DNA of 11,498 nucleotides from a virus (lineage: Duplodnaviria; Heunggongvirae; Uroviricota; Caudoviricetes): the IMG/VR virus record IMGVR_UViG_2698536395_000021. One strand, 5' to 3'. Position numbers and translations under genes: made by a program. How positions within the stretch are numbered: position 1 is the first letter of the stretch; each line of letters starts with the position of its first letter. This document shows, piece by piece, positions 1 to 11,498 of this stretch. The notes under the pieces are model-generated. The model saw nothing but the letters and a program-made list of their open reading frames with translations, had not been told where the DNA came from and searched no databases.

Positions 1-351
1 GCCTGCGATGCCCTGCAGATGGCGCTGTGGCGGCGTAAGAGGCCCCGGAACGTTATCGTTCACACGGACCGTGGAGGCCAGTACTGTTCAGCAGATTATC
101 AGGCGCAACTGAAGCGGCATAATCTGCGTGGAAGTATGAGCGCAAAAGGTTGCTGCTACGATAATGCCTGCGTGGAAAGCTTCTTTCATTCGCTGAAAGT
201 GGAATGTATCCATGGAGAACACTTTATCAGCCGGGAAATAATGCGGGCAACGGTGTTTAATTATATCGAATGTGATTACAATCGGTGGCGGCGGCACAGT
301 TGGTGTGGCGGCCTCAGTCCGGAACAATTTGAAAACAAGAACCTCGCTTAG
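1..351 (+). CDS. IS3-family transposase OrfB (DDE integrase core), C-terminal part; 5' end outside window
   Basis: Frame is open from base 1; the listed ATG at 19 is internal. Translation ...[55 protein letters not shown]...[19 protein letters not shown] matches the conserved C-terminus of IS3-family OrfB (IS2/IS3/IS600 pattern; IS600 assignment from memory). Confidence 0.9.
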
Positions 352-381
352 GCCTGTGTCCATATTACGTGGGTAGGATCA
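1..381 (+). mobile_element. Right end of an IS3-family insertion sequence (IS600-like), cut by the window edge; terminus placed at ...GTGGGTAGGATCA (381)
   Basis: Seen: transposase C-terminus in frame 1 from base 1; sequence 369-381 GTGGGTAGGATCA resembles the IS3-family right terminus (reverse complement of the TGATCnTACCCA left-end consensus, recalled from memory). GC-richer than the downstream cassette. Exact IR length not determined. Confidence 0.8.
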
Positions 382-502
382 CGCAGGGGTCGGCCCATTT
401 GAGCTTCAGATAGGAACGTTTGAATTCCTTTCACAAAATACATCACATACTGAACGTGAACATTCCCACTTTGATCTTAAGGCCAAAAAGTATGCAGGAC
501 TA

Positions 503-2221
503 ATGATTTTTAGGGATAGCTTGAGAGTATTACCTTATGGTCGAGTAGATAATGATTTCTTCCAGATAGAAGAAAGACGTTCATGGAATGCAGGGCGATA
601 TTATTGGTCTAATAGAAGGATTTTTGGTTATATTGGAATTACTCAATCCAGTAATAAAGAGCTGAAAGATAAGTCGGGGAGAGAGGGATTCATAAGAAAC
701 CAGGCTGCAAGAGAACTGAAAACTATTATATCTAATTTGTTAACTGAACTTGCTGATAGATTTTTTGGTTCACGTTCTGATGACCGTAAAGAGCTTTTAG
801 AACAAGTTAAGCGTGAAAAAGAGTTAAGAAAATCTGCTCAACAACAAGCTCGAAAATCAACACAAAAAAGTTTTTCAGAAGCTTTGAAGAATCAGACACC
901 AGTTCTTGATGCTTCCTTGGAGGCTGTTAAAAGGCTGAAAACTAAGCTTGATAAAACTGATGGTTCGTTAGATTTAAACTATCTTAAAATTATAGACAGT
1001 GATCTTACAAACTTAGATGCGTTGCGCAGTGAAATTAAAACGCCTATCAAACCTCCAAAACTTGGAATGTATGAAGAGAAATATAGAGACTACAGAGATA
1101 AATTTAATGAGTTCTCTGCGTATATTCTACAAATGAAGTTAGCAATTAATAAACTTGATTCTGAATTAAATAAACTTGAGCCTTCATTGTCAGCGAAAAA
1201 TCACCTTGAAAAAAATCAAGGTATTATTAATTCTAAACTAACTAAGTTTAATAACACGATAGAGGAGAAGATACATTCTCTTTTAAAAAAATGGGCCGAT
1301 GAAATAAAGGTTGATCGAAGTGATTATTATGCTAAAACTATATCAGTTGTTGATTCAATAGATAATGATTCACAAATTGAAAATGTGTTTAATTTGCTCG
1401 ATAGTTTATATGTTGAGTCAGTTGATACCCTAACTTTCAAATATCAATCAATAATAAAAGGTCTCGATAGATTATTTGAAGGTATAAACTTAGATTCAGC
1501 ATTCTCATTATCTGAAGAAGAACGCTCATATTTTGAAGAAAAAGCTAAAAGTTTAAACGCGCTTGCACAGTTAGGTATTAGTGTTGAGATAATATCTCAT
1601 GAACTTGAAGAAATGGATTCTATGGTAACCAGAGGACTAAACTCTCTTCCTACTTCTGTAAAAGAACACCCTGGTTTTTCATTGGCGTTAAATGCTCACA
1701 GATCGCTTACTCAACAAATACGTTTCTTATCACCTTTGAAAATATCAGGTTATCAATCCAGGCAGAGAATAACTGGAAAAAATATCATGGATTATGTCCT
1801 GAAGTTCTTTGGGGAGCGTTTCGAACGGCAACGAATAACTATTGAATTTAGTGAAGAGTTTAAGCAAATCGCAATAACAGATATACCATTAAGGATCTAT
1901 CCTGTTTTTACTAATATTATCAACAATGCAATGTATTGGGTCAGTCTGTCAAATAATAGGCTCATAAAGATTGGTTTTGTGAATTCTTTGGTTATCATAG
2001 CAAATTCTGGTCCGGCAATTGATACCGATGATATCCCGCGACTATTTGAACTATTTTATAGCAAAAGAGCAAATGGACATGGGGTAGGTCTGTATCTATG
2101 TCGAGAAAACCTTGCTGTTGCACATCATAAAATATGGTATTCAGAACCTGATGAAGGCGATAACTATTTAATAAAAGATGGCGCTAATTTTGTGATCCAG
2201 TTCAATGGAGTGGAGTTCTAA
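503..2221 (+). CDS. Soluble histidine-kinase-like protein: N-terminal domain, long coiled coil, DHp-like His-box, C-terminal HATPase_c; possibly N-terminally truncated by the upstream IS
   Basis: 572 aa ORF, AGGA 4 nt upstream of ATG. No obvious TM segments. Coiled-coil-like region (KELLEQVKREKELRKSAQQQARK...). His-box-like ISHELEEM. HATPase_c motifs in order: N-box VFTNIINNAMYW, G1-like IANSGPAID, F-box-like LFELFYSKR, G2 GHGVGLYL. Motifs seen directly; domain assignment is by comparison with the histidine-kinase consensus from memory. Confidence 0.8.
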   Translation: MIFRDSLRVLPYGRVDNDFFQIEERRSWNAGRYYWSNRRIFGYIGITQSSNKELKDKSGREGFIRNQAARELKTIISNLLTELADRFFGSRSDDRKELLEQVKREKELRKSAQQQARKSTQKSFSEALKNQTPVLDASLEAVKRLKTKLDKTDGSLDLNYLKIIDSDLTNLDALRSEIKTPIKPPKLGMYEEKYRDYRDKFNEFSAYILQMKLAINKLDSELNKLEPSLSAKNHLEKNQGIINSKLTKFNNTIEEKIHSLLKKWADEIKVDRSDYYAKTISVVDSIDNDSQIENVFNLLDSLYVESVDTLTFKYQSIIKGLDRLFEGINLDSAFSLSEEERSYFEEKAKSLNALAQLGISVEIISHELEEMDSMVTRGLNSLPTSVKEHPGFSLALNAHRSLTQQIRFLSPLKISGYQSRQRITGKNIMDYVLKFFGERFERQRITIEFSEEFKQIAITDIPLRIYPVFTNIINNAMYWVSLSNNRLIKIGFVNSLVIIANSGPAIDTDDIPRLFELFYSKRANGHGVGLYLCRENLAVAHHKIWYSEPDEGDNYLIKDGANFVIQFNGVEF

Positions 2222-2222
2222 T

Positions 2223-3971
2223 ATGACAGTGGCAAATTATAATTCTCTTGTCCAGAAAACTTTCTGCGAAAATGCAATTCGTTCCGTTGTCATGATTGAT
2301 GACGATTTTCTGACGTATTCTGAATCAATCAGGGCGTTGAATAACGAAGTTGATTTAGACTACAACAAAATTGACTCATCTAAACGAGCCGCTACTCTTG
2401 AGAGCTTTTTTCAATCTAAAAATATGATTTGTGATGTTGACAATGGTTCTGTTAATTTCGATGTGGATCGGATTAGAAAATCAGATCTTATTATTGTAGA
2501 TTATCATCTTGATAATAATGCACCTGATAAAACACTTAAACTATTACAAGATTTGAAAGACTCCGATCATTTAAATATGATTGTAATATATACTAGAGAG
2601 AATTTAGAAACGGTTTGGATGCAGATATCATCGACTCTCAAAGGTGCTCTGGATATCAACAGCTTGATCATTGACTACGATAATGAAGATGTCCAAAGTT
2701 ATTGGGAAGACGTTGTATTACCGAACTTAAATGATAATGGTAATAAAGCTCTCACAAGAGATGAAATAATAGCCTATATTAAAGACAGTAAGCCTTGTAG
2801 AAGAATTAAAAGATTAATACATGATGATGCTGTGTTGGAGGATCAAAAGGATAAAAACTTCATTGCAAAAATGATTGCAGAATATGCTGTGTCTAGAAAT
2901 GCAATTATTTCTAGCAACACATCTGGCAATGTCATTCGGGGTGATGAAAGCGGAGTAAAATGGATTCAATGTGGTAATATCTTTGTCTCCCTATTTCATA
3001 AGGTTCAAGATGATCATGAAAACGATGGAGATAGGATTTGGCAAACTCTCAATGATTCTCTCATTGAATGGAAACCATCTTATTATCAGTTAATAAAATC
3101 TGAAATTCAGAATGCAATCGAAGCTGAGGCTTTATCTTTTGTAAATCATTTGGCTAACGATCATTACGGTCAAGCTGCGTGGTTAAATGAGATATTAAAA
3201 TCAGACTCGCCTGATATTAGATGTAGAAATATTGACTTTGTATTTGGTAATTTATCAGAAGAGCTTTATCAAAGACTTAAAAATAATAATACGCTGGATG
3301 AATTTATCAAAAGTGTTTTTGATAGCTATTCAAATGAATACGCTAACAGCGGAGTTGCTGCATTGCTCCAATATTGCTCTTCAAAAATGGATCTGCCATC
3401 AAATAATGATACTTATCACGAAATGTATCATGCTTTAAATATGAATTTGTCTTCAAAGAATTTTGAAGATGGTCATATTTCTACTGGCACTATTTTCTTT
3501 GATACAGAGTCGAACAAATGGTATTTATGTGTATCTGCGGCATGTGATTTGGTTCCTACTCAGGGTAACGACCCTCACCATGTAAGATTAAGTCCGCACA
3601 GGCTCATTAAAGTTCTGGAGCTTTTTAACGCCAGTCAGAGTAAAGCATTGCCATTTGCTGAACATTCGAAATATATATATGTAATGCATAAAAATCAAAG
3701 AAAATATCTCTCTATTTTCGAAGGGGATAAAACGCTTCCTGTTGTTGATTATATGGTGGTGTTGAATCATGGAACAACAGTTGATGGCGAAGAAAAAAAT
3801 ATTATTTCTGCCGTGTTTTTAAGTAATATGGATGGCAACGTGCAAAATGTTCCTGTCCGACTCAAACTTAAATCTCAACTGAGAACTGGTTATGCAGAAA
3901 GATATCAGGCTATAGCGTCTCAGTATAGCTCAAGGATTGGTGTGGATTATGTATCAATGATGCTACCATAA
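2223..3971 (+). CDS. Receiver (REC)-like domain protein with a large C-terminal domain of unknown function; no recognisable DNA-binding output
   Basis: Start moved from the ORF-track ATG at 2205 to ATG 2223 (MTVANYNSL...): it lies 1 nt after the upstream TAA (2219-2221) and 7 nt after GGAGTGGAG. The N-terminal ~130 aa fits a receiver fold: VVMIDDD (acidic pair), DLIIVDYHLDNN (candidate phospho-acceptor Asp), NMIVIYT (conserved Thr position), then a Lys. The remaining ~450 aa show no motif I can assign. Confidence 0.8.
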   Translation: MTVANYNSLVQKTFCENAIRSVVMIDDDFLTYSESIRALNNEVDLDYNKIDSSKRAATLESFFQSKNMICDVDNGSVNFDVDRIRKSDLIIVDYHLDNNAPDKTLKLLQDLKDSDHLNMIVIYTRENLETVWMQISSTLKGALDINSLIIDYDNEDVQSYWEDVVLPNLNDNGNKALTRDEIIAYIKDSKPCRRIKRLIHDDAVLEDQKDKNFIAKMIAEYAVSRNAIISSNTSGNVIRGDESGVKWIQCGNIFVSLFHKVQDDHENDGDRIWQTLNDSLIEWKPSYYQLIKSEIQNAIEAEALSFVNHLANDHYGQAAWLNEILKSDSPDIRCRNIDFVFGNLSEELYQRLKNNNTLDEFIKSVFDSYSNEYANSGVAALLQYCSSKMDLPSNNDTYHEMYHALNMNLSSKNFEDGHISTGTIFFDTESNKWYLCVSAACDLVPTQGNDPHHVRLSPHRLIKVLELFNASQSKALPFAEHSKYIYVMHKNQRKYLSIFEGDKTLPVVDYMVVLNHGTTVDGEEKNIISAVFLSNMDGNVQNVPVRLKLKSQLRTGYAERYQAIASQYSSRIGVDYVSMMLP

Positions 3972-4042
3972 TTATTATATTTTAGGCGTGGTGATTTTTT
4001 TTCGCCATGCCTATTTTATATTTATCATCACAATGATGTTGT

Positions 4043-4459
4043 TTATTTTTGTTTAAGTCTTCTAAGCTTCATGCATTCTAATGAGAATAATAATAGAGTT
4101 GTGCTGTATATAAAGCCAGAGTTAGTTAATAACTTTAAATTTAATGCTTCAGGATTTTCACTGAGAAAGTGAAAGGCATAAACTAAGTATACAGCTAAAG
4201 TAGCCGTTCCAATTGTTGGTCCAATATCGCCTTGATCATGAGGTTCAAGGTTTACATTGAACTTGAAGATTAGCCATTCAAATCCCCAAGTAAAAAAAAC
4301 AACTAATATCATGGCTGCGAATAATTTCGCGATGTTATCTGCTGATGGATTCATCAGAACAGATTGTTTCTGAAAAAATTCACAAAGTGAGAGTCCGAAA
4401 AAAATAAAAAAAAGTGGTCTGGAACTAAATTTTTCAAAAACTTTGAATAGGGTTTCCAT
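4043..4459 (-). CDS. Small hydrophobic membrane protein (about 4 predicted TM helices), function unknown
   Basis: 138 aa ORF with ATG start, 38 bp downstream of and co-directional with the integrase. Hydrophobic stretches PLFFIFFGLSL, LFAAMILVVFFTWGFEWLIF, ATLAVYLVYAFHF, FIYSTTLLLFSL. AT-rich like the adjacent cassette. Confidence 0.6.
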   Translation of the reverse strand: METLFKVFEKFSSRPLFFIFFGLSLCEFFQKQSVLMNPSADNIAKLFAAMILVVFFTWGFEWLIFKFNVNLEPHDQGDIGPTIGTATLAVYLVYAFHFLSENPEALNLKLLTNSGFIYSTTLLLFSLECMKLRRLKQK

Positions 4460-4497
4460 TTTCTTTACCTTCAGGATTATATTAGCTATTCTGATAC

Positions 4498-5727
4498 TTA
4501 GGCTACCAGAGCATTTGATCTTTGAGCTTGAACGTAATCACTCCACCATTGCATCAAACTCTGTCGCTCTATCAGATATTCTGCACGATTGTATGCTGCG
4601 ATAATTTCATCTTTTTTCGAGTGGGCAAGCGCTGCCTCAAGAACTTCAGCTCTGAATTTACCAGACTCCTCTGCCGCTGTTCGTGCAATAGAACGCATAC
4701 CGTGAGCTACAAGCTCGCCTCCGAACCCCATTCGGATGATAGCTGCGTTGGCTGTTTGTTCATGCATATGATTAAGAGGCGCTTTTATGCTGGGGAAAAC
4801 CCATTCTCTATGCCCACTTATTGATTTCATTAATTCAAGGATGCGCAAAGCTTCTTTACTCAAAGGAACTTTGTGAAGCTTTTTCATTTTCATGAAATCA
4901 GCAGGAATGTTCCAAATGCTGTTGGTTGTATCAATATCAGACCACCTTGCGCGAACGGCTTCACCCGGACGAACCCATGTCAACAATTGCCATTCAATTA
5001 GCATACGTGTTTCCAACCGGATTGACGCATTCGTCAAAGATTCCATAAACCTTGGCAATTCGCTTGGGGGAAGGGCAGGCATATTTTGCTTTTTTGGTTT
5101 ACTGAATCTTTGACCAAGGTTGTCAGCCGGGTTGAACTCAATAAGTTCTTCAGTAGCTGCCCACCGGAAGATTTCATTCAGACGTGAAATGATACGGCGT
5201 AGAGTTTCCAATACGCCTCGTTGCTCAATAGGATCAAGGTGTTGTTTTAAGAGCTTAGGTCGGATCTCATTGATAGGGACATTACCCAGACCGGGAAAGA
5301 CATTTCTCTCTAAGCTGCGCCAGATGTCTGCTGCATGGTCTTGTGAGATACCTGATGTCTTTACCTTCTCATCTAACCATTTCCGCGCTACGGCTTGGAG
5401 AGTGTGCTCAGTAGCACTCTTTAATGCCTTCGCCTTATCGTTGTTATGGATTTGGGGATCAACACCATTTGCCAGAAAGGAGAGATATTCATCACGTAAG
5501 GCTCTGGCTCTTGCAAGGGTAAGGTGAGGATATGTCCCAAGGCTCATTTTGGTTCTTTTCTTGCTCACGGGTACTGCATACCTGAAATACCAATTTTTCT
5601 TGCCTCCTTTCGCCAAAGGAGCGATTCGTAGAATCAGACCATCACCGTCAAACAAGTTGATTTCTTTATCGGCTGGCTTGGTGCTTTTGATTTCAGTGTC
5701 AGTGAGCTTCTTAGCGATTTTTGCCAT
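4498..5727 (-). CDS. int: P4-type tyrosine integrase (IntA/CP4-57-like)
   Basis: Start taken at the ATG at 5727 (MAKIAKKLTDTEIK...), which has GAGG 8 nt upstream and aligns with the N-terminus of E. coli IntA as I recall it; the ORF-track start at 5769 has no SD. Matches include DGDGL, ADIWRSLERNVFP, ALRILELMK, HGMRSIARTAA, LAHSKKDEIIAAYNRAEYLIERQSLMQWW. Confidence 0.92.
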   Translation of the reverse strand: MAKIAKKLTDTEIKSTKPADKEINLFDGDGLILRIAPLAKGGKKNWYFRYAVPVSKKRTKMSLGTYPHLTLARARALRDEYLSFLANGVDPQIHNNDKAKALKSATEHTLQAVARKWLDEKVKTSGISQDHAADIWRSLERNVFPGLGNVPINEIRPKLLKQHLDPIEQRGVLETLRRIISRLNEIFRWAATEELIEFNPADNLGQRFSKPKKQNMPALPPSELPRFMESLTNASIRLETRMLIEWQLLTWVRPGEAVRARWSDIDTTNSIWNIPADFMKMKKLHKVPLSKEALRILELMKSISGHREWVFPSIKAPLNHMHEQTANAAIIRMGFGGELVAHGMRSIARTAAEESGKFRAEVLEAALAHSKKDEIIAAYNRAEYLIERQSLMQWWSDYVQAQRSNALVA

Positions 5728-5824
5728 TTTGGGACCCTCGGTTTTTGGACCCTTCTTAGTGGGTCCCATTCAGGGTGCCATAACTCGTAGTTCTCAGCAA
5801 TTCTCACTGGACGACAATAGACGT

Positions 5825-5856
5825 AAAAAAGCCCGCAGAGCTTGTGCTGTGTGGGC
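5825..5856 (-). terminator. Rho-independent terminator on the minus strand, between the ssrA-like core and the integrase
   Basis: Minus-strand RNA reads GCCCACA-(loop CAGCACAAGCUC)-UGCGGGC then UUUUUU. Stem has 4 G-C pairs, one A/C mismatch, then 2 more pairs. The plus strand has the A-tract before the hairpin, so it is minus-specific. Confidence 0.5.
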
Positions 5857-5891
5857 TTAGTAGACTTCATTGAACTTCAAACAACTAAAAA

Positions 5892-5916
5892 GTGGAGCTG
5901 GCGGGAGTTGAACCCG
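5892..5916 (-). other. Attachment-site core: 25-bp copy of the 3' end of tmRNA (ssrA), without the rest of the gene
   Basis: Minus strand reads CGGGTTCAACTCCCGCCAGCTCCAC, identical to the E. coli ssrA T-arm/acceptor 3' segment as I recall it. The CCA end is replaced by TTTTT, and upstream sequence does not continue as tmRNA; no 5' acceptor partner within 400 bp. Lies about 165 bp upstream of the P4-type int start. Confidence 0.7.
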
Positions 5917-5975
5917 TGCCCGAGCAATGCTTAACCCATTGAATAACAATGCATTCTCTGTTTAAAAATGCCTCA

Positions 5976-6025: not shown

Positions 6026-6967
6026 TTAAGTGGCCACTTGAAGTTCCGGCCCTGCGTCGCTATCTATTAACGGCTGACCTTGAACCATTTTTTCAACCAT
6101 ATCGTTTGAAGGATATGGAACCCCGAGCTCAACCGTATTAGGGTTGGAACGGTGGGTTTCAACAAACGATGTTCCGTTCCATTTTTTTGAAAGGTAGATT
6201 ATTCCTTCAAAGGCTGCAGGGTCCTGTTTCTGAGACTCTAAGATCATGTGGAAGCCACGACGTTCTATCCCGCGTAAGAAGCTGGAGAAGCACTCCCTCA
6301 GTAATTCGTCATCCAAATCCTTGAACTTGATACCCTGCGCAAGAAACTCGAAATAATTAAGAATATATAAAAGGCCATTGATGGCATCCCTGTACTCATC
6401 GGGGACCTTCATATTCTTGTATTCTTCTTTGTCTGGGTTGCAGCGCCACTCTGATAGTTCTTGTGGTACATAACGCATGCCCCGATAGAATTTGGTGCTG
6501 TTCCGAAGCTGTTTTTGGTACTCCGGGCTTGTTCGGGTGTTAATGATCATGTTCAGCGTGTGGGACCTGCGCGTGTTAGCAGCGGACGTTATGCATTGTA
6601 TCCACCATCCCATTCCAACGAGCATTCCTGTAACCATGATCGAAAGCGATGTTTGATAGGCCGGTGTGTACCTTAAAATTGCATATCCAATAAGGATAAT
6701 CACATAACAAACAGTGCTGAACATAGGAAGAAATTCTGCAGTGTCTGGATAGCGTTTTTTGATGAAGCAGAAGATAGAAGATATTGCTGCACCAGAACCA
6801 GCAATGACGATCAGCCAATCAATGATGGCGATGCTAAATGGTAGTTTTCCAGGGTAGATATAAGTAAAAAGTGCTCTGACAATCATCATTAGAGCAAAAA
6901 TTGTAGCGCTGACGTTGACTAATGTTCTCGCCATCTTATTGATTCCTATAACAAAAGACCTCCGCAT
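6026..6967 (-). CDS. Membrane protein: N-terminal about 4 TM helices plus about 180 aa soluble C-terminal domain; function unknown (prophage cargo or moron candidate)
   Basis: 313 aa ORF with ATG start (alternative Met 12 codons in, MARTLVNV...). Hydrophobic segments ATIFALMMIV, AIIDWLIVIAGSGAAISSIFCFI, MFSTVCYVIILIGYAIL, SIMVTGMLVGMGWWI, then a charged C-terminal domain. Sits between the lambda-type int 3' end and the att core. Confidence 0.75.
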   Translation of the reverse strand: MRRSFVIGINKMARTLVNVSATIFALMMIVRALFTYIYPGKLPFSIAIIDWLIVIAGSGAAISSIFCFIKKRYPDTAEFLPMFSTVCYVIILIGYAILRYTPAYQTSLSIMVTGMLVGMGWWIQCITSAANTRRSHTLNMIINTRTSPEYQKQLRNSTKFYRGMRYVPQELSEWRCNPDKEEYKNMKVPDEYRDAINGLLYILNYFEFLAQGIKFKDLDDELLRECFSSFLRGIERRGFHMILESQKQDPAAFEGIIYLSKKWNGTSFVETHRSNPNTVELGVPYPSNDMVEKMVQGQPLIDSDAGPELQVAT

Positions 6968-7416: not shown

Positions 7417-8592
7417 TCAGCTTGACACAACATTTATAGACGTTTTACCATCGTATTCAGCCAGGTATTTACCGTAATTGCGGAACAGCATTTCCGGCCC
7501 CTTATGCCCCATCTGCCCGGCAAGCCAGAAAAGGTTTACACCCTGGCTAATGTGTCTGGTGGCGAATGTGTGGCGCGTCTGGTACGGGTTACGGTAGCGC
7601 ACACCAGCTTTTTTCAGGGTCGGCACCCATGCTTTTTTACGGATAGCGTCGGCGTTCGTCCAGGGTTCTCCCGTTTTCGGATCGCTGAATATGAACTCAC
7701 TTTTCATAAAGGTGTATTGCTTCTGCGCCTGCAGGGCTGCCAGCGCCTCACTGTTCAGCTCCACCTTACGGGTACCGGCTTTTGTCTTGGTGCCTTTAAG
7801 TACCCCTACGACACTGGCCGCCTGAACGTGGGCTGTGTTCGCGATGGTGTCGAGATCAGCCCAGCGCAGCGCGCACAGTTCTGAGCTCCGCAGACCTGTA
7901 TTGAAAGCAAAGCGGAACAGGTTTTCCCATTCCCTGTACCTGCAGCTCTGGTAAATGGCAAGGGTCTCCGCTGGCGTGAACGGGTCAACCTCGTAATCGT
8001 CGGCGCTCGGGCTACTGTCGATCACGTGGTACCGGCTGGCGCTGACGAGGGTTACCGGGTTAATGGTCAGCAGGCCATCCGTAACAGCTTCATCAATGGC
8101 GCTGCGCAGAAATGACAGGTTATTCCTGATTGTTTTCAGCTTAGTTTTTCGGCTGGCTATCCAATTTTTTAGTATCGCAGGCGTCAATTCTGTTACATGT
8201 AGTTTATGTAGTTCTGATAGTGCTGATAGACATTTTTCGTAACCGCCAATGGTTGACGGCGACAGATTACGGTTTATGCAAATTTTCAGGTATTCATCAA
8301 GATAGGACTTAATATTTTTGGTTTTCTTTACTACACCGAATAACTCCAGTTTTTTGGAATTGGGGAAATATTTCGCATATTCAAACGTTCCGCTGGCGAT
8401 CTGATTTTGTATCTCCCCTAGCAGGCGCTCAGCATATTTTATACCACGTGTATTTGCCTCAAGCCGAGATAGGGGCTCCCTGCAAAGAACCCCTTTATAT
8501 GTGAAAGTGATAACTAGTGTTGAAGCAGTTTTATGCTTACGAATAGTTACTCCTCTTGGCAGAGATAATAATCCTTGTTCTTTCTTGCCCAT
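7417..8592 (-). CDS. int: Lambda-type tyrosine integrase (phage integrase family)
   Basis: Start taken at the ATG at 8592 (MGKKEQGLLSLPRGV...), with AGAGG 7 nt upstream; the ORF-track start 8619 is 9 codons further up. C-terminal catalytic region ...LRWADLD...RHTFATRHISQGVNLFWLAGQMGHKGPEMLFRNYGKYL has the conserved R/H/Y pattern. 5' end overlapped by an excisionase-like gene, as in lambdoid xis-int. Confidence 0.9.
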   Translation of the reverse strand: MGKKEQGLLSLPRGVTIRKHKTASTLVITFTYKGVLCREPLSRLEANTRGIKYAERLLGEIQNQIASGTFEYAKYFPNSKKLELFGVVKKTKNIKSYLDEYLKICINRNLSPSTIGGYEKCLSALSELHKLHVTELTPAILKNWIASRKTKLKTIRNNLSFLRSAIDEAVTDGLLTINPVTLVSASRYHVIDSSPSADDYEVDPFTPAETLAIYQSCRYREWENLFRFAFNTGLRSSELCALRWADLDTIANTAHVQAASVVGVLKGTKTKAGTRKVELNSEALAALQAQKQYTFMKSEFIFSDPKTGEPWTNADAIRKKAWVPTLKKAGVRYRNPYQTRHTFATRHISQGVNLFWLAGQMGHKGPEMLFRNYGKYLAEYDGKTSINVVSS

Positions 8593-8756
8593 TTTGAAAC
8601 CTCTATTAAGTCGACCCAACGCTCTTTAACCCCGTCGACTTTTAATACATGTACCCCTTCTTTCCATATTCCTCTTTGTATCCGTTTGTTAACGGCATCA
8701 ACCGTTTCTCCCGCGTTGCGGCAGTAGGTTGATATAGGTACGCAATCCAGCCCCAC
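8547..8756 (-). CDS. xis: Excisionase-like small DNA-binding protein (Xis family, tentative)
   Basis: 69 aa ORF starting with GTG, overlapping the int start by about 45 nt. The segment GETVDAVNKRIQRGIWKEGVHVLKVDGVKERWVDLIEVSKWARKNK resembles the lambda Xis winged-helix region (ETVRRWVRE...VKDGREYLF) as I recall it. Start codon uncertain. Confidence 0.6.
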   Translation of the reverse strand: MGLDCVPISTYCRNAGETVDAVNKRIQRGIWKEGVHVLKVDGVKERWVDLIEVSKWARKNKDYYLCQEE

Positions 8757-8764
8757 AGTTCACC

Positions 8765-8911
8765 TCACACAACATTCAGCCCACGACAGTGACACCACAC
8801 TTCAAACATTCGTTTCACAATTTCACGACAGTAGAAACCGTCAACATCTCGCGTCAGGTCATAGCGATTGCCGAATGTCTTGCGAACCCATAACTCAAAA
8901 ACCGTATGCAT
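8765..8911 (-). CDS. Hypothetical 48-aa Cys-rich small protein
   Basis: Hand-translated: MHTVFELWVRKTFGNRYDLTRDVDGFYCREIVKRMFEVWCHCRGLNVV. ATG sits 3 nt after the upstream gene's TGA, same strand as the operon. Below the ORF-track length cutoff; no similarity evidence. Confidence 0.3.
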   Translation of the reverse strand: MHTVFELWVRKTFGNRYDLTRDVDGFYCREIVKRMFEVWCHCRGLNVV

Positions 8912-8914
8912 GTA

Positions 8915-9157
8915 TCACCTCCGTTGCATTGCGCGCAATTTTTTCAGGTGCTTTTCCTGCTCAGTGTCCGCCAGGATTTTGCAATACTGCTGGTGGTCAA
9001 TATGTTCGAACAGGCAGTTGAACTCACCAATGCATACCCGCCCGGAGTGTCCGTCCATACGTCGAAAGAACACAGAGCGGTCCGTACAGCGAGTAATCAC
9101 CACAGGGTATCCGGCCCTGTCCGTGTATATTTGCCCGCGTTGAATAAGTGCGAACAT
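8915..9157 (-). CDS. Hypothetical small phage protein (80 aa)
   Basis: ATG start; co-oriented and close-packed with the surrounding minus-strand operon. Preferred over the overlapping plus-strand ORFs 8868-9143 and 8906-9190 on operon context only. Confidence 0.5.
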   Translation of the reverse strand: MFALIQRGQIYTDRAGYPVVITRCTDRSVFFRRMDGHSGRVCIGEFNCLFEHIDHQQYCKILADTEQEKHLKKLRAMQRR

Positions 9158-9161
9158 GAGA

Positions 9162-9245
9162 TTATCCCCAGCGGCAAATCGAAAAAATAATCAGCGCAAT
9201 CGATATTGCAACACCTACAATTGCAAATGCTTCAGGCCAACTCAT
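9162..9245 (-). CDS. Candidate 27-aa hydrophobic micro-protein (single TM helix)
   Basis: Hand-translated MSWPEAFAIVGVAISIALIIFSICRWG. Its ATG overlaps the upstream stop (ATGA at 9245-9242), and its 3' end TGGGGATAA supplies a GGGG SD for the next gene. No other evidence. Confidence 0.3.
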   Translation of the reverse strand: MSWPEAFAIVGVAISIALIIFSICRWG

Positions 9246-10105
9246 TGACTCACCTCCTGCGGCGGTTCTGGTAGAGGCATCCAGTGGGTTACATCGCATT
9301 CAGGGATGCTGATATCATCACCAAGCCACCCTTGACCTTCAGACCAGCATTGCACGTAATACCCGTATTCTGTGTTCACTACGCACCACTGTGCGTCGTT
9401 CGGCATTAGCTCACTACAGCTTATCCAACCATCCGGAGTTACCGGAACTTGCGGAATGGCTGTCTGCTCTCGAACGTCATTAGGCGCTATAGGTTCTGCT
9501 GCCAACTGACTGGCATATTTGTTAATGGTAACGATAAGCTCTTGCTCAGCCTCATCCAGATAATCACCGATACCTCGCCTGTCACCGTCAAAATCATCGA
9601 AATCGGCACGAATCTTGGCAACCTTCTGGATTGCGGACAACACCTCACTAGGAATTACCGGATAGTTGGTTGACGTTTCCGCGATTTCCCGAAAATTATT
9701 GGTTGACGAATTCTTATTTTCCCGAAAGTTTCTGGCCTGAAGCATGGCGGCGCGGCAGGCATTCCAGCCAGTAGCGTAATATTTCGCATCCTGCCAGCTC
9801 GTTTGTACATTTGAGTACGCTTTTTCCTCTGTCATGGCCTCTGGTATTGATGCCGGTGCAATTCGTGGCAGGCCGATATATAGTGGTACATCTCCCGGCT
9901 CCATCGAATTGACGGGCCAAATATACGCATCACTACCATGGTTAATGAGCGCAATCCCCGAAGTATCGATGATGCCAAATGGCTCCGCTGTCAATGCAGT
10001 CAATGCAATTTCATAAGCCCGACGCTCAATATTGTCTCGCACGTCCAGGCTGCTTATGCGCTCTTTGATTTCTTTAATCAGTTTCTTATCGGTGAAAGTG
10101 GTCAT
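9242..10105 (-). CDS. Lambdoid prophage early-region protein (287 aa); Cys/Trp-rich C-terminal module, possibly DUF551-like
   Basis: ATG start with AAGGAG 6 nt upstream; stop of the upstream gene 1 nt before the ATG. C-terminus ...WISCSELMPNDAQWCVVNTEYGYYVQCWSEGQGWLGDDISIPECDVTHWMPLPEPP is reminiscent of a module common in enterobacterial prophage early genes (from memory; needs HMM confirmation). Confidence 0.75.
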   Translation of the reverse strand: MTTFTDKKLIKEIKERISSLDVRDNIERRAYEIALTALTAEPFGIIDTSGIALINHGSDAYIWPVNSMEPGDVPLYIGLPRIAPASIPEAMTEEKAYSNVQTSWQDAKYYATGWNACRAAMLQARNFRENKNSSTNNFREIAETSTNYPVIPSEVLSAIQKVAKIRADFDDFDGDRRGIGDYLDEAEQELIVTINKYASQLAAEPIAPNDVREQTAIPQVPVTPDGWISCSELMPNDAQWCVVNTEYGYYVQCWSEGQGWLGDDISIPECDVTHWMPLPEPPQEVSQ

Positions 10106-10106
10106 C

Positions 10107-10436
10107 TCACTCTCCTTTGATGCGAATGCCAGCGACGCGTAGTGCGTGTTCTAAGTCAATCAGGCAAAGCCAGCTGCCATTTTCTTTAGGTATCATGACA
10201 TGTCGCTTATCAGCATTTATTGGGTGCCCATATCGAAGGTCGTAGCGAGTCGGTAATTGAACTTCCCTCGCTTCCAGTTCTGTAATGCGTTTGTTTTTAG
10301 CTTCTAGTTCATCCAGCAGCACCAGCACAACCTGCGGTGTGACTTTCATACGAAACGCAAGCAATTTTTGCGGCGTTGCCACGACTTTTATTGCTTCTGC
10401 CGCCTCACGCAGTGCCTGATAGTCAATCTTGCTCAC
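10107..10436 (-). CDS. Hypothetical lambdoid early-region protein (109 aa); possibly Ead/Ea22-like
   Basis: GTG start with AGGAGG 6 nt upstream, overlapping the upstream stop (GTGA). Coiled-coil-like LLDELEAKNKRITELEAREVQ. Family name is a guess from memory. Confidence 0.65.
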   Translation of the reverse strand: MSKIDYQALREAAEAIKVVATPQKLLAFRMKVTPQVVLVLLDELEAKNKRITELEAREVQLPTRYDLRYGHPINADKRHVMIPKENGSWLCLIDLEHALRVAGIRIKGE

Positions 10437-10672
10437 TGGTTGCCTCCTTTACGGATCTGCGCTGCGATGCGCGAAAAAAAAGCCTCCCGCGTATGGCTGT
10501 TAAGAGCTGGCGCGAACGCCGCGTTAAGAACGGCAGCATCACAGCCGTCATCGATATAGAGCGCAATTTTTTTCTCCAGGCGCGCTTTGGCTTCCTGCAA
10601 CTGCATACCCCGGCACGCACGCGGGATATAATCAGCAATTTGAGCGATAGCTTTTTCGTTCTGTTTAAACAT
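10433..10672 (-). CDS. Hypothetical phage protein (79 aa)
   Basis: ATG start; overlaps the upstream gene by 8 nt and the downstream gene by 4 nt. Amino-acid composition looks natural, unlike the overlapping Arg-rich 120-aa ORF 10423-10785. Confidence 0.6.
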   Translation of the reverse strand: MFKQNEKAIAQIADYIPRACRGMQLQEAKARLEKKIALYIDDGCDAAVLNAAFAPALNSHTREAFFSRIAAQIRKGGNQ

Positions 10673-10868
10673 GCTTCACCTCGATAGGCTTGATGGTGTC
10701 TAACAGCAGTCGGCGGCGCGTATTTTCTGCAAAATGGCGGCGTCCAGTTTCTTTGTGGTAAAACTCGTTTTTGCCAACGACCCACATCCGCTCTGTTTGG
10801 TGCAATTTTTTTACCTGCGGGCCATCTTTGGTGATCACGGTACCGGTATGGGTTTTTACGATTGTCAT
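10665..10868 (-). CDS. Hypothetical phage protein (67 aa)
   Basis: ATG at 10868 overlaps the upstream gene's TGA (ATGA at 10868-10865). Confidence 0.6.
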   Translation of the reverse strand: MTIVKTHTGTVITKDGPQVKKLHQTERMWVVGKNEFYHKETGRRHFAENTRRRLLLDTIKPIEVKHV

Positions 10869-11498
10869 GCCACGACCTCTTCGAATTTCAACTCCAATTG
10901 GTCACCCCAGATTTCACATGATTCGGAACACGAACCAGTATCAAACCGCTTGGCCAGCACCATCGCCTGATACAAACTTCTGTAGTCGCTGTCGGCATAC
11001 ATTCTGGCAATCCCGTCAAGCGTCAGGTGACCACGGTACATAACGTCTTTACCTGTTCTGCGATGACCATCCCTGACGTGTTTGCCTGTAACCAGTTCAT
11101 TAAAAACCCGCATCAGACCGGGTTCGTCTTTACATGCAAGCCCCAGCTTTTGCGTTGACTTTTTGATGCAAAAAACACAGTTCCCGAGGTGCTCCGGGAT
11201 TTGCAAATCAAAAGGTTGTTTTTGCCACCACCGGATAACATCCGACTTATCAAAATCTGACAGCTCGGCAAGATACCGGACGCCAGGTTTCGGTTTCAGC
11301 CTACGGGGTTCGTCCGCACGAATACCGAGCCATGTGATGTAATTCCCTCGCCCAAAATGGTCATCGCAATATTTCGTGAAAGGGGTGAGTTTTAGCCTGT
11401 CAGTACAGAATGCGCCGCCGATGTATGAGGTGTACTGGCAATAGCGGCCACTACCATTTGTTCTTTTTTTAAGCAGCCATCTGATGATATTTTTCCCT
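10865..11498 (-). CDS. PAPS-reductase-like (phosphoadenosine phosphosulfate reductase family) phage protein, C-terminal part; N-terminus beyond the window
   Basis: The ORF-track TTG at 11206 is only the first start codon in the window. Hand translation shows the same frame open with no stop from 11497: ...GKNIIRWLLKKRTNGSGRYCQYTSYIGGAFCTDRLKLTPFTKYCDDHFGRGNYITWLGIRADEPRRLKPKPGVRYLAELSDFDKSDVIRWWQKQPFDLQIPEHLGNCVFC... LGIRADE and the following W-rich and Cys motifs fit the PAPS reductase family as found in lambdoid prophages (from memory). Confidence 0.6.
   Translation of the reverse strand, partial: GKNIIRWLLKKRTNGSGRYCQYTSYIGGAFCTDRLKLTPFTKYCDDHFGRGNYITWLGIRADEPRRLKPKPGVRYLAELSDFDKSDVIRWWQKQPFDLQIPEHLGNCVFCIKKSTQKLGLACKDEPGLMRVFNELVTGKHVRDGHRRTGKDVMYRGHLTLDGIARMYADSDYRSLYQAMVLAKRFDTGSCSESCEIWGDQLELKFEEVVA

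Follow-up and report, generated by a model that had tools for sequence, protein, structure and literature searches.

A histidine-kinase and receiver-effector gene pair on an ssrA-integrating island of Escherichia coli is probably the remnant of a three-gene, restriction–modification-like cassette

The window analyzed here, the whole 11,498 nucleotides (nt) of the Caudoviricetes record IMGVR_UViG_2698536395_000021, carries a soluble histidine-kinase-like gene (gene 1) coupled to a gene that joins a receiver to a long C-terminal region (gene 2), both lying on an integrase island. This locus raises the question of whether the pair is a working two-gene defense module of an undescribed kind, as a preliminary description had proposed, or what is left of a larger system. 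Based on comparisons with intact relatives, we consider it likely that the pair is the remnant of a three-gene restriction–modification (R-M)-like cassette on an island that integrates at ssrA, that the intact trio is driven by a phosphorelay, and that the copy in the window is most probably non-functional. The features on which this reading depends are the following (aa, amino acids):

1–381, plus strand: right end of an IS3 insertion sequence, with the C-terminus of transposase orfB at 19–351 (Pfam rve_2, rve_3 and rve) and a terminal inverted repeat that stops at 381
382–2221, plus strand: 5'-truncated paraMORC-histidine-kinase gene (gene 1), frame open from 383, corresponding to aa 377–988 of a 988-aa intact protein
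1568–1744, plus strand: HEF_HK (DHp/His-box) domain of gene 1 (Pfam PF19191, aa 356–414)
1886–2161, plus strand: C-terminal HATPase_c of gene 1, the kinase catalytic domain, with N, G1, F and G2 boxes (Pfam PF02518)
2223–3971, plus strand: gene 2, an intact 582-aa receiver-effector gene of the Response_reg_2 family, starting 1 nt past the gene 1 stop
2277–3008, plus strand: receiver (REC) domain of gene 2, with a helical insert
3006–3968, plus strand: C-terminal region of gene 2, about 320 aa, with a helical bundle (aa ~268–410) and a beta-rich domain (aa ~411–565)

As annotated (503–2221), gene 1 encodes 572 aa, in which Pfam recognized HEF_HK with 26.1 bits (cut-off 24.1) and HATPase_c at aa 462–553 with 44.8 bits (E 1.9e-11). 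The motif ISHELEEM begins at aa 364 and places the putative phospho-accepting histidine at H366 (nt 1598–1600), the equivalent of H782 in the intact protein. Half of the residues between aa 96 and 350 are E, K, R, D, Q or L, with 5 Pro and 5 Gly. Neither gene 1 nor gene 2 contains a transmembrane-like hydrophobic window, all 19-aa Kyte–Doolittle windows of gene 1 being at or below 1.6. The two genes are separated by a single nucleotide (TAA 2219–2221, ATG 2223), with GGAG motifs shortly upstream of the gene 2 start. The preliminary description, which had reported a soluble kinase-like protein with a His box, closely coupled on an integrase island to a gene opening with a receiver, was accurate in these respects.

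Gene 1 is a 5'-truncated remnant that has lost codons 1–376 of the kinase gene. The gene is cut, a point missing from the preliminary description: between the IS3 end at 381 and ATG 503 its frame is not interrupted, and no stop was found in the translation of 380–520. When the translation of 383–2218 was used as a query, 988-aa proteins of Salmonella, Klebsiella and Serratia were matched with 99% identity over the full query length, and by BLASTP 606 of the 612 residues of the extended gene 1 are identical to aa 377–988 of the intact orthologue P0003. At the DNA level, the intact island can be aligned from 381/382 onward, precisely the point at which the IS3 terminal repeat stops, and positions 381–5915 of the window are 98.9% identical to a contig that carries this island (L002). 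The annotated start at 503 is an internal methionine, M417 of the intact protein. Because the 988-aa orthologues match the extended frame, the RefSeq '572-aa ATP-binding protein' is an open reading frame (ORF) that begins at an internal methionine of a decapitated gene; at the IS3 end, RefSeq gives the label 'IS3-like element IS3 family transposase'.

A natural short isoform of 572 aa was also considered, and was ruled out by the frame that continues upstream in the window and by a split gene in Klebsiella pneumoniae (L074, CP141543.1, 5734–8719). In the latter, an independent disruption of the kinase gene has been called as one ORF of 314 aa, with HATPase_c_3, and another of 572 aa; since this 572-aa ORF is the downstream piece of the split gene, the 572-aa call is at least sometimes a product of gene calling and not evidence for an isoform. 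The K. pneumoniae locus still has its C5 methylase and receiver gene and represents a second case of decay, with the methylase kept. As a lesson for annotation, recurrent '572-aa ATP-binding protein' calls, perhaps including part of the published 'group 2' discussed below, can be pieces of broken genes, as in the window and in K. pneumoniae.

The intact island in L002 consists, in order, of a C5 DNA methylase gene that overlaps the start of the kinase gene, the 988-aa kinase, the 582-aa receiver protein, a 138-aa hypothetical protein, a P4-type integrase, the transfer-messenger RNA (tmRNA) gene at 16638–17001 and smpB. The same methylase-kinase-receiver trio was found in a Salmonella integrative and conjugative element, in the cargo of an Acinetobacter Tn7-like element and in a metagenomic relative of 25% identity, so that its carriers, together with the integrase islands, are mobile elements. 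A helix-turn-helix controller-like gene stands alongside the trio in the Acinetobacter loci only. To survey the neighborhoods, one genome per species was taken, giving 62 loci. All 57 loci having upstream DNA show the kinase gene immediately before the receiver gene, and of the 54 with enough flank, 52 have a neighboring C5 methylase gene, the exceptions being L040 and L012. L012 is the same IS3-truncated form as the window. It is a 5.6-kb contig (DAIPZW010000118.1) filed as a Bacteroidales metagenome-assembled genome, with a truncated 572-aa kinase ORF and a receiver protein 100% identical to that of the window, and is probably a binning contaminant from E. coli. Other recurrent neighbors are Vsr (24 loci) and HNH_2 (3 loci), and no further neighbor was conserved among the 62 loci.

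Vsr repairs the T:G mismatches that result from deamination of 5-methylcytosine, and for this reason its presence fits a methylase acting on host DNA. In PADLOC-DB 2.0.0, the methylase of the intact island matches type II methylase models; no methylase gene was found in the window, either in the ORF list or by Pfam. Judged by these neighborhoods, the conserved unit has three genes, a C5 DNA methylase, a paraMORC-kinase and a REC-effector, often with Vsr, which replaces the 'two-gene variant' of the preliminary description.

Full-length 988-aa orthologues of gene 1 combine HATPase_c_3 (MORC/MutL-type GHKL) with HEF_HK and HATPase_c. Across 51 full-length homologues, the following motifs are at least 98% conserved (numbering of the intact protein): E32/N36/D39, DxGxG at 61–65 and GxxGxG at 103–109 in the N-terminal GHKL domain; RVLPYG at 423–428 and a Lys-containing SGREGF motif, both of which fit an S5/transducer region; the His-box pair H782–E783; and the kinase boxes N887/N890–N891, G919 and GxGxG at 941–945. 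Every GHKL motif falls in the portion that is deleted from the window. In NCBIfam, the N-terminus of the kinase is closest to the BbrUII/HgiDII restriction-enzyme family NF050001 (E 1.5e-13), with 50 bits against a family cut-off of 550, and MutL stands lower in the list of matches.

In gene 2, Response_reg_2 (PF19192) was matched at aa 19–175 with 109.1 bits against a cut-off of 27 (E 3.6e-31). The catalytic residues of the receiver are conserved and comprise the acidic pair D26/D27, the phospho-acceptor D93 (nt 2499–2501, motif IIVDYH), T124 and K260. In agreement with the preliminary description, Pfam found no recognizable domain in the remaining ~400 aa. Within the C-terminal region, the invariant residues include N406, G422, C436, C441, P445, Q552, R554, Y557, R571, G573 and D575, and T423 and D442 are nearly invariant; the sole fold resemblance of this putative effector domain is a weak one, of its beta-rich part to the SH3-type barrel of the CcdB/MazF toxin superfamily. 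The gene 2 product matches with 100% identity a protein cluster that counts 1,966 members and bears the name 'response regulator receiver domain'. A profile search with the C-terminal region against 1.84 billion representatives returned 675 protein clusters. Among the best 150 of these 675, most proteins are 560–680 aa long with the match at about 250–600, and shorter ones look like fragments; no other architecture was met, the domain always standing behind this receiver in full-length proteins. The C-terminal domain therefore appears tied to this receiver.

For the intact relatives, we propose the following mechanism, centered on the soluble 988-aa protein, in which a long helical region links a MORC-like GHKL+S5 ATPase at the N-terminus to a histidine-kinase core made up of the His box and the catalytic domain. 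The C5 methylase would mark host DNA as self, and the MORC-like ATPase may detect foreign or unmodified DNA or an infection cue. The kinase core would then autophosphorylate on H782 and pass the phosphate to D93 of the receiver. The fused C-terminal region would thereby be switched on as an effector, maybe as a toxin-like or nucleic-acid-targeting domain.

The pair is not new to the literature. Pfam PF19191 and PF19192 were created for it, the family described by Bellieny-Rabelo, Pretorius & Moleleki (2021, Genome Biol Evol; PMC8011034), who reported 91.6% linkage of HEF_HK and Response_reg_2 genes, a dominant kinase architecture of HATPase_c_3, HEF_HK and HATPase_c, with the C-terminal HATPase_c present in 93.7% and the N-terminal HATPase_c_3 in 83% of HEF_HK family members, and enrichment beside C5 methylases, Vsr and HNH_2. 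Their study was purely computational and gave no function to the C-terminal region of the receiver protein (PMC8011034). Our 62-locus census agrees with that survey. In addition, the stretch already carries the label 'remnant integrative element' in GenBank AJ304858.2 (the record of phage CP-1639, with its integration site in E. coli 1639/77), where a 'histidin kinase-like protein' is annotated, and the claim that the pair was undescribed does not stand. The window pair resembles the family in that both proteins score above the Pfam gathering thresholds and the genes are adjacent and co-oriented, with a soluble kinase. It differs in lacking the N-terminal HATPase_c_3, a feature that is not obligatory in the family and from which the gene is cut off at 381/382, and in lacking a neighboring C5 methylase.

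Two further groups of systems share parts of the intact architecture. Ambrosia of Pseudomonas aeruginosa comprises an XRE regulator (AbrR), an N6-adenine methylase (AbrA), an Hsp90-like/histidine-kinase protein (AbrB), a receiver (AbrC) and an HNH nuclease (AbrD), and all components, including the receiver aspartate, are needed for anti-phage defense (10.1101/2025.09.30.679545). Using the AbrB and AbrC sequences of Table S1 of that preprint, with the first 399 aa of AbrB compared, we found 32% identity between AbrB and P0003 in the GHKL domain (E 6e-11) and a match in the S5 region (E 4e-6). Ambrosia and the intact relatives thus have in common a methylase, an Hsp90/MORC-like protein extended by a histidine kinase, and a receiver protein; the window kinase retains only the C-terminal half of the AbrB-type architecture. 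In contrast, Ambrosia has five genes, with an N6-adenine methylase and a separate HNH nuclease, whereas the relatives of the window have a C5 methylase and no conserved separate nuclease; its receiver is 209 aa long, whereas theirs is fused to a 320-aa domain. No similarity was detected between AbrC (209 aa) and the gene 2 family (582 aa; hhalign probability 0.3%), and no AbrA-, AbrD- or AbrR-type gene was found in the window. On these comparisons Ambrosia is best seen as a relative at the kinase level and a different system. The paraMORC/MORC GHKL ATPases of R-M operons (Iyer, Abhiman & Aravind 2008; PMC2292703) and the GHKL-bearing restriction enzymes of the BbrUII/HgiDII family share with the intact orthologue the GHKL+S5 module and its conserved ATP-binding motifs; the orthologue is linked to cytosine methylases and Vsr. 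Here, however, the GHKL module is joined to a histidine-kinase core and not to a nuclease, and has a receiver protein as partner; in the window the module is deleted. V. cholerae WonAB, taken up from the paraMORC literature, proved unrelated.

Because Ambrosia, with a homologous kinase, is a validated anti-phage defense, the intact relatives are probably R-M-like defense systems gated by a phosphorelay. The defense role put forward in the preliminary description is accordingly plausible for those relatives, given their methylase, Vsr and mobile carriers, but the window copy is most likely inactive: with the methylase and the first 376 kinase codons lost, what is left is a remnant and no longer a working variant.

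The module is present in 574 of 5,426 complete E. coli genomes, in 562 of them at ≥99% identity, and the identical junction of IS3 and gene 1 was found in 484 of the 5,426. At the sensitivity of megablast, the missing methylase and 5' part of the kinase gene were detected in none of these genomes at ≥85% identity. We conclude that the copy in the window is most probably an inactive relic, inherited clonally in lineages of the enterohaemorrhagic E. coli (EHEC) type.

Several points weigh against this conclusion. The intact C5-methylase/kinase/receiver trio is itself known from sequence alone. Nothing is missing from gene 2, and every motif of the kinase core is retained; given an intact gene 2, transcription that reads through from the co-oriented IS3 transposase gene could express the two genes and leave residual activity. 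The authors of the Ambrosia study prefer transcriptional control by the receiver over direct activation of an effector, and methylation did not protect phage DNA in that system (10.1101/2025.09.30.679545). Finally, AJ304858.2 has the same breakpoint (CGCAGGGG...) fused to chromosomal DNA without IS3. The first of the alternatives that build on such points is that the truncated pair is still a working two-gene module, in which a kinase core translated from the methionine at 503 after IS3 read-through phosphorylates the receiver-effector and confers defense or another benefit without the methylase. It would account for a gene 2 that is nearly unchanged against the intact island (2 non-synonymous and 12 synonymous codon changes), for the retention of all DHp and catalytic motifs behind a co-oriented orfB, and for the persistence of the form in at least 484 complete genomes; an architecture without HATPase_c_3, 'group 2', has also been reported for 34 of 222 proteins (Bellieny-Rabelo et al. 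2021, PMC8011034). However, the carrier genomes are ≥99% identical over the region, and persistence may reflect recent clonal descent, while the 572-aa form of K. pneumoniae indicates that a piece of a broken gene can be called as a short form. Both the native promoter and the sensor ATPase have been lost, no promoter-like site was seen in 382–502, and the AGGA motif lies just 3 nt ahead of ATG 503. The gene 1 remnant has relatively more non-synonymous change (6 non-synonymous and 4 synonymous changes), a contrast with gene 2 that gave a one-sided Fisher p of ~0.03 in a hand calculation on small numbers and that fits relaxed constraint on a remnant. We regard a working pair as unlikely on this balance. 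Its most specific form is less likely still: the truncated kinase would phosphorylate the receiver-effector through IS3 read-through in EHEC strains of the O26/O103/O111 type, as a methylase-independent module whose effector would be a previously unseen, possibly CcdB/MazF-like domain met behind this receiver only.

A second alternative is that the intact family serves ordinary gene regulation as a two-component system: the receiver protein would govern transcription of the adjacent methylase or restriction genes and would not itself be an effector. Infection induces Ambrosia reporter genes, and AbrC is described as having a winged helix-turn-helix domain (10.1101/2025.09.30.679545), and the 2021 study raised a regulatory link to R-M systems (PMC8011034). 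Gene 2 contains no DNA-binding domain or other known output domain of a canonical response regulator, and we give this reading a low probability, like that of a working pair. Far less probable is a variant of Detocs, with a kinase that senses phage and activates a receiver-fused cell-killing effector. Detocs consists of the kinase DtcA with an N-terminal TPR sensor, the receiver-only buffer DtcB, and DtcC, whose receiver is fused to a PNP ATP-nucleosidase in 80% of systems, and its effectors are swappable (Rousset et al., 10.1101/2023.01.24.525353). The principle of a cytoplasmic kinase that would phosphorylate a receiver fused to an effector is shared, and so is the logic of a soluble kinase with a receiver-effector. 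However, no receiver-only ORF was found in the window and none is conserved in the 62 related loci, the N-terminus of the intact orthologue has HATPase_c_3 and no TPR, and no fusion of the receiver to PNP or another known cell-killing domain was met in gene 2. An obligatory methylase partner, present in the relatives only, is foreign to Detocs, and no homology was seen between the window and Detocs beyond generic kinase and receiver folds. PADLOC-DB 2.0.0, a release for which Detocs models were not confirmed, was run on both window proteins and the intact kinase and gave no defense-family match. Membership in Detocs was ruled out, in line with the different family that the preliminary description had allowed for.

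The remnant reading leaves the origin of the truncation to be described. The kinase-gene breakpoint is the same in all copies (381/382 in the window; 2700–2740 of AJ304858.2, L075; 7700–9001 of contig L001). Because AJ304858.2 shares it without IS3, one ancestral truncation is the simplest account. A deletion ending at IS3 appears to have taken the methylase, the native promoter region and kinase codons 1–376, including the putative ATPase sensor, and IS3 is the likely agent. O26-type genomes have a full IS3 at the breakpoint, preceded by TTATCT; in strain 1639/77 the chromosome joins the breakpoint directly, with no IS3 and no 3-bp target duplication. Either an IS3-mediated deletion followed by loss of the element or a deletion followed by IS3 insertion would give this distribution. 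The IS3 at L001 7808–8970, whose end corresponds to window positions 1–381, is a RefSeq pseudogene with an internal stop besides the programmed frameshift, and the copy beside the remnant may itself be inactive.

The remainder of the island, downstream of gene 2, contains the following features:

3983–4013, plus strand: terminator-like hairpin followed by a T run, with a 12-pair stem of which 6 are GC pairs, between gene 2 and the convergent gene
4043–4459, minus strand: 138-aa hydrophobic hypothetical protein, island cargo convergent with gene 2
4498–5769, minus strand: P4-type tyrosine integrase of the island (Pfam Arm-DNA-bind_3, Phage_int_M and Phage_integrase)
5890–5915, minus strand: 3' fragment of ssrA (tmRNA), the last ~26 nt, an attachment (att)-site remnant forming the right end of the island

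The terminator-like hairpin would close the operon of gene 1 and gene 2. The 138-aa protein has transmembrane-like segments, gave no family match in Pfam, PADLOC or NCBIfam searches, and occupies the same place in the intact island of L002; it occurs in 4 of the 62 related loci, traveling with the island in Enterobacterales but not with the module elsewhere, and is probably not a member of the module. The right end is marked by the stop of L002 homology 26 nt into the tmRNA gene; the Rfam tmRNA match at 5890–5937 is weak, and ARAGORN found no complete tRNA or tmRNA in the window. With a G+C fraction of 0.29–0.37 across the module, the preliminary view of an AT-rich cargo between an IS element and a convergent P4-type integrase at an ssrA-type att site was correct.

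Just upstream of the integrase gene and adjoining the ssrA fragment, 5825–5899 (minus strand) has a partial Rfam match to the IsrM small RNA (51.5 bits, E 5e-12; gathering score 376), probably island-end sequence common to Salmonella islands. A 313-aa membrane protein with a DUF4760 domain (E 8e-16) is encoded at 6026–6967 (minus strand), alone between the ssrA att remnant and the next prophage integrase, and could be att-junction cargo; its sole PADLOC match, to DrmMII, is weak (E 0.0026) and was judged not credible. The remaining stretch, 7417–11498 (minus strand), starts with a second tyrosine integrase (7417–8619), followed by small leftward genes (RefSeq: DUF4222, DUF551, ead/Ea22-like and others). 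It resembles the early-left region next to int in a lambdoid prophage, one that has integrated at ssrA in tandem, and the equivalent prophage in AJ304858.2 is CP-1639.

The pair in the window was known before and has decayed, and counting it as a defense system in EHEC genomes would be a mistake. The pattern of loss may be informative in itself, with the methylase and the sensor ATPase lost together, which is what a lethal effect of losing the methylase alone would lead one to expect. Of wider importance is the intact family, and the question of general interest is the role of the receiver-fused domain in the intact three-gene systems. In this family, a C5 methylase is nearly always coupled to a MORC-like ATPase-histidine kinase and a receiver with a 320-aa domain, which looks like an R-M-type system whose 'restriction' arm would be driven by a phosphorelay.

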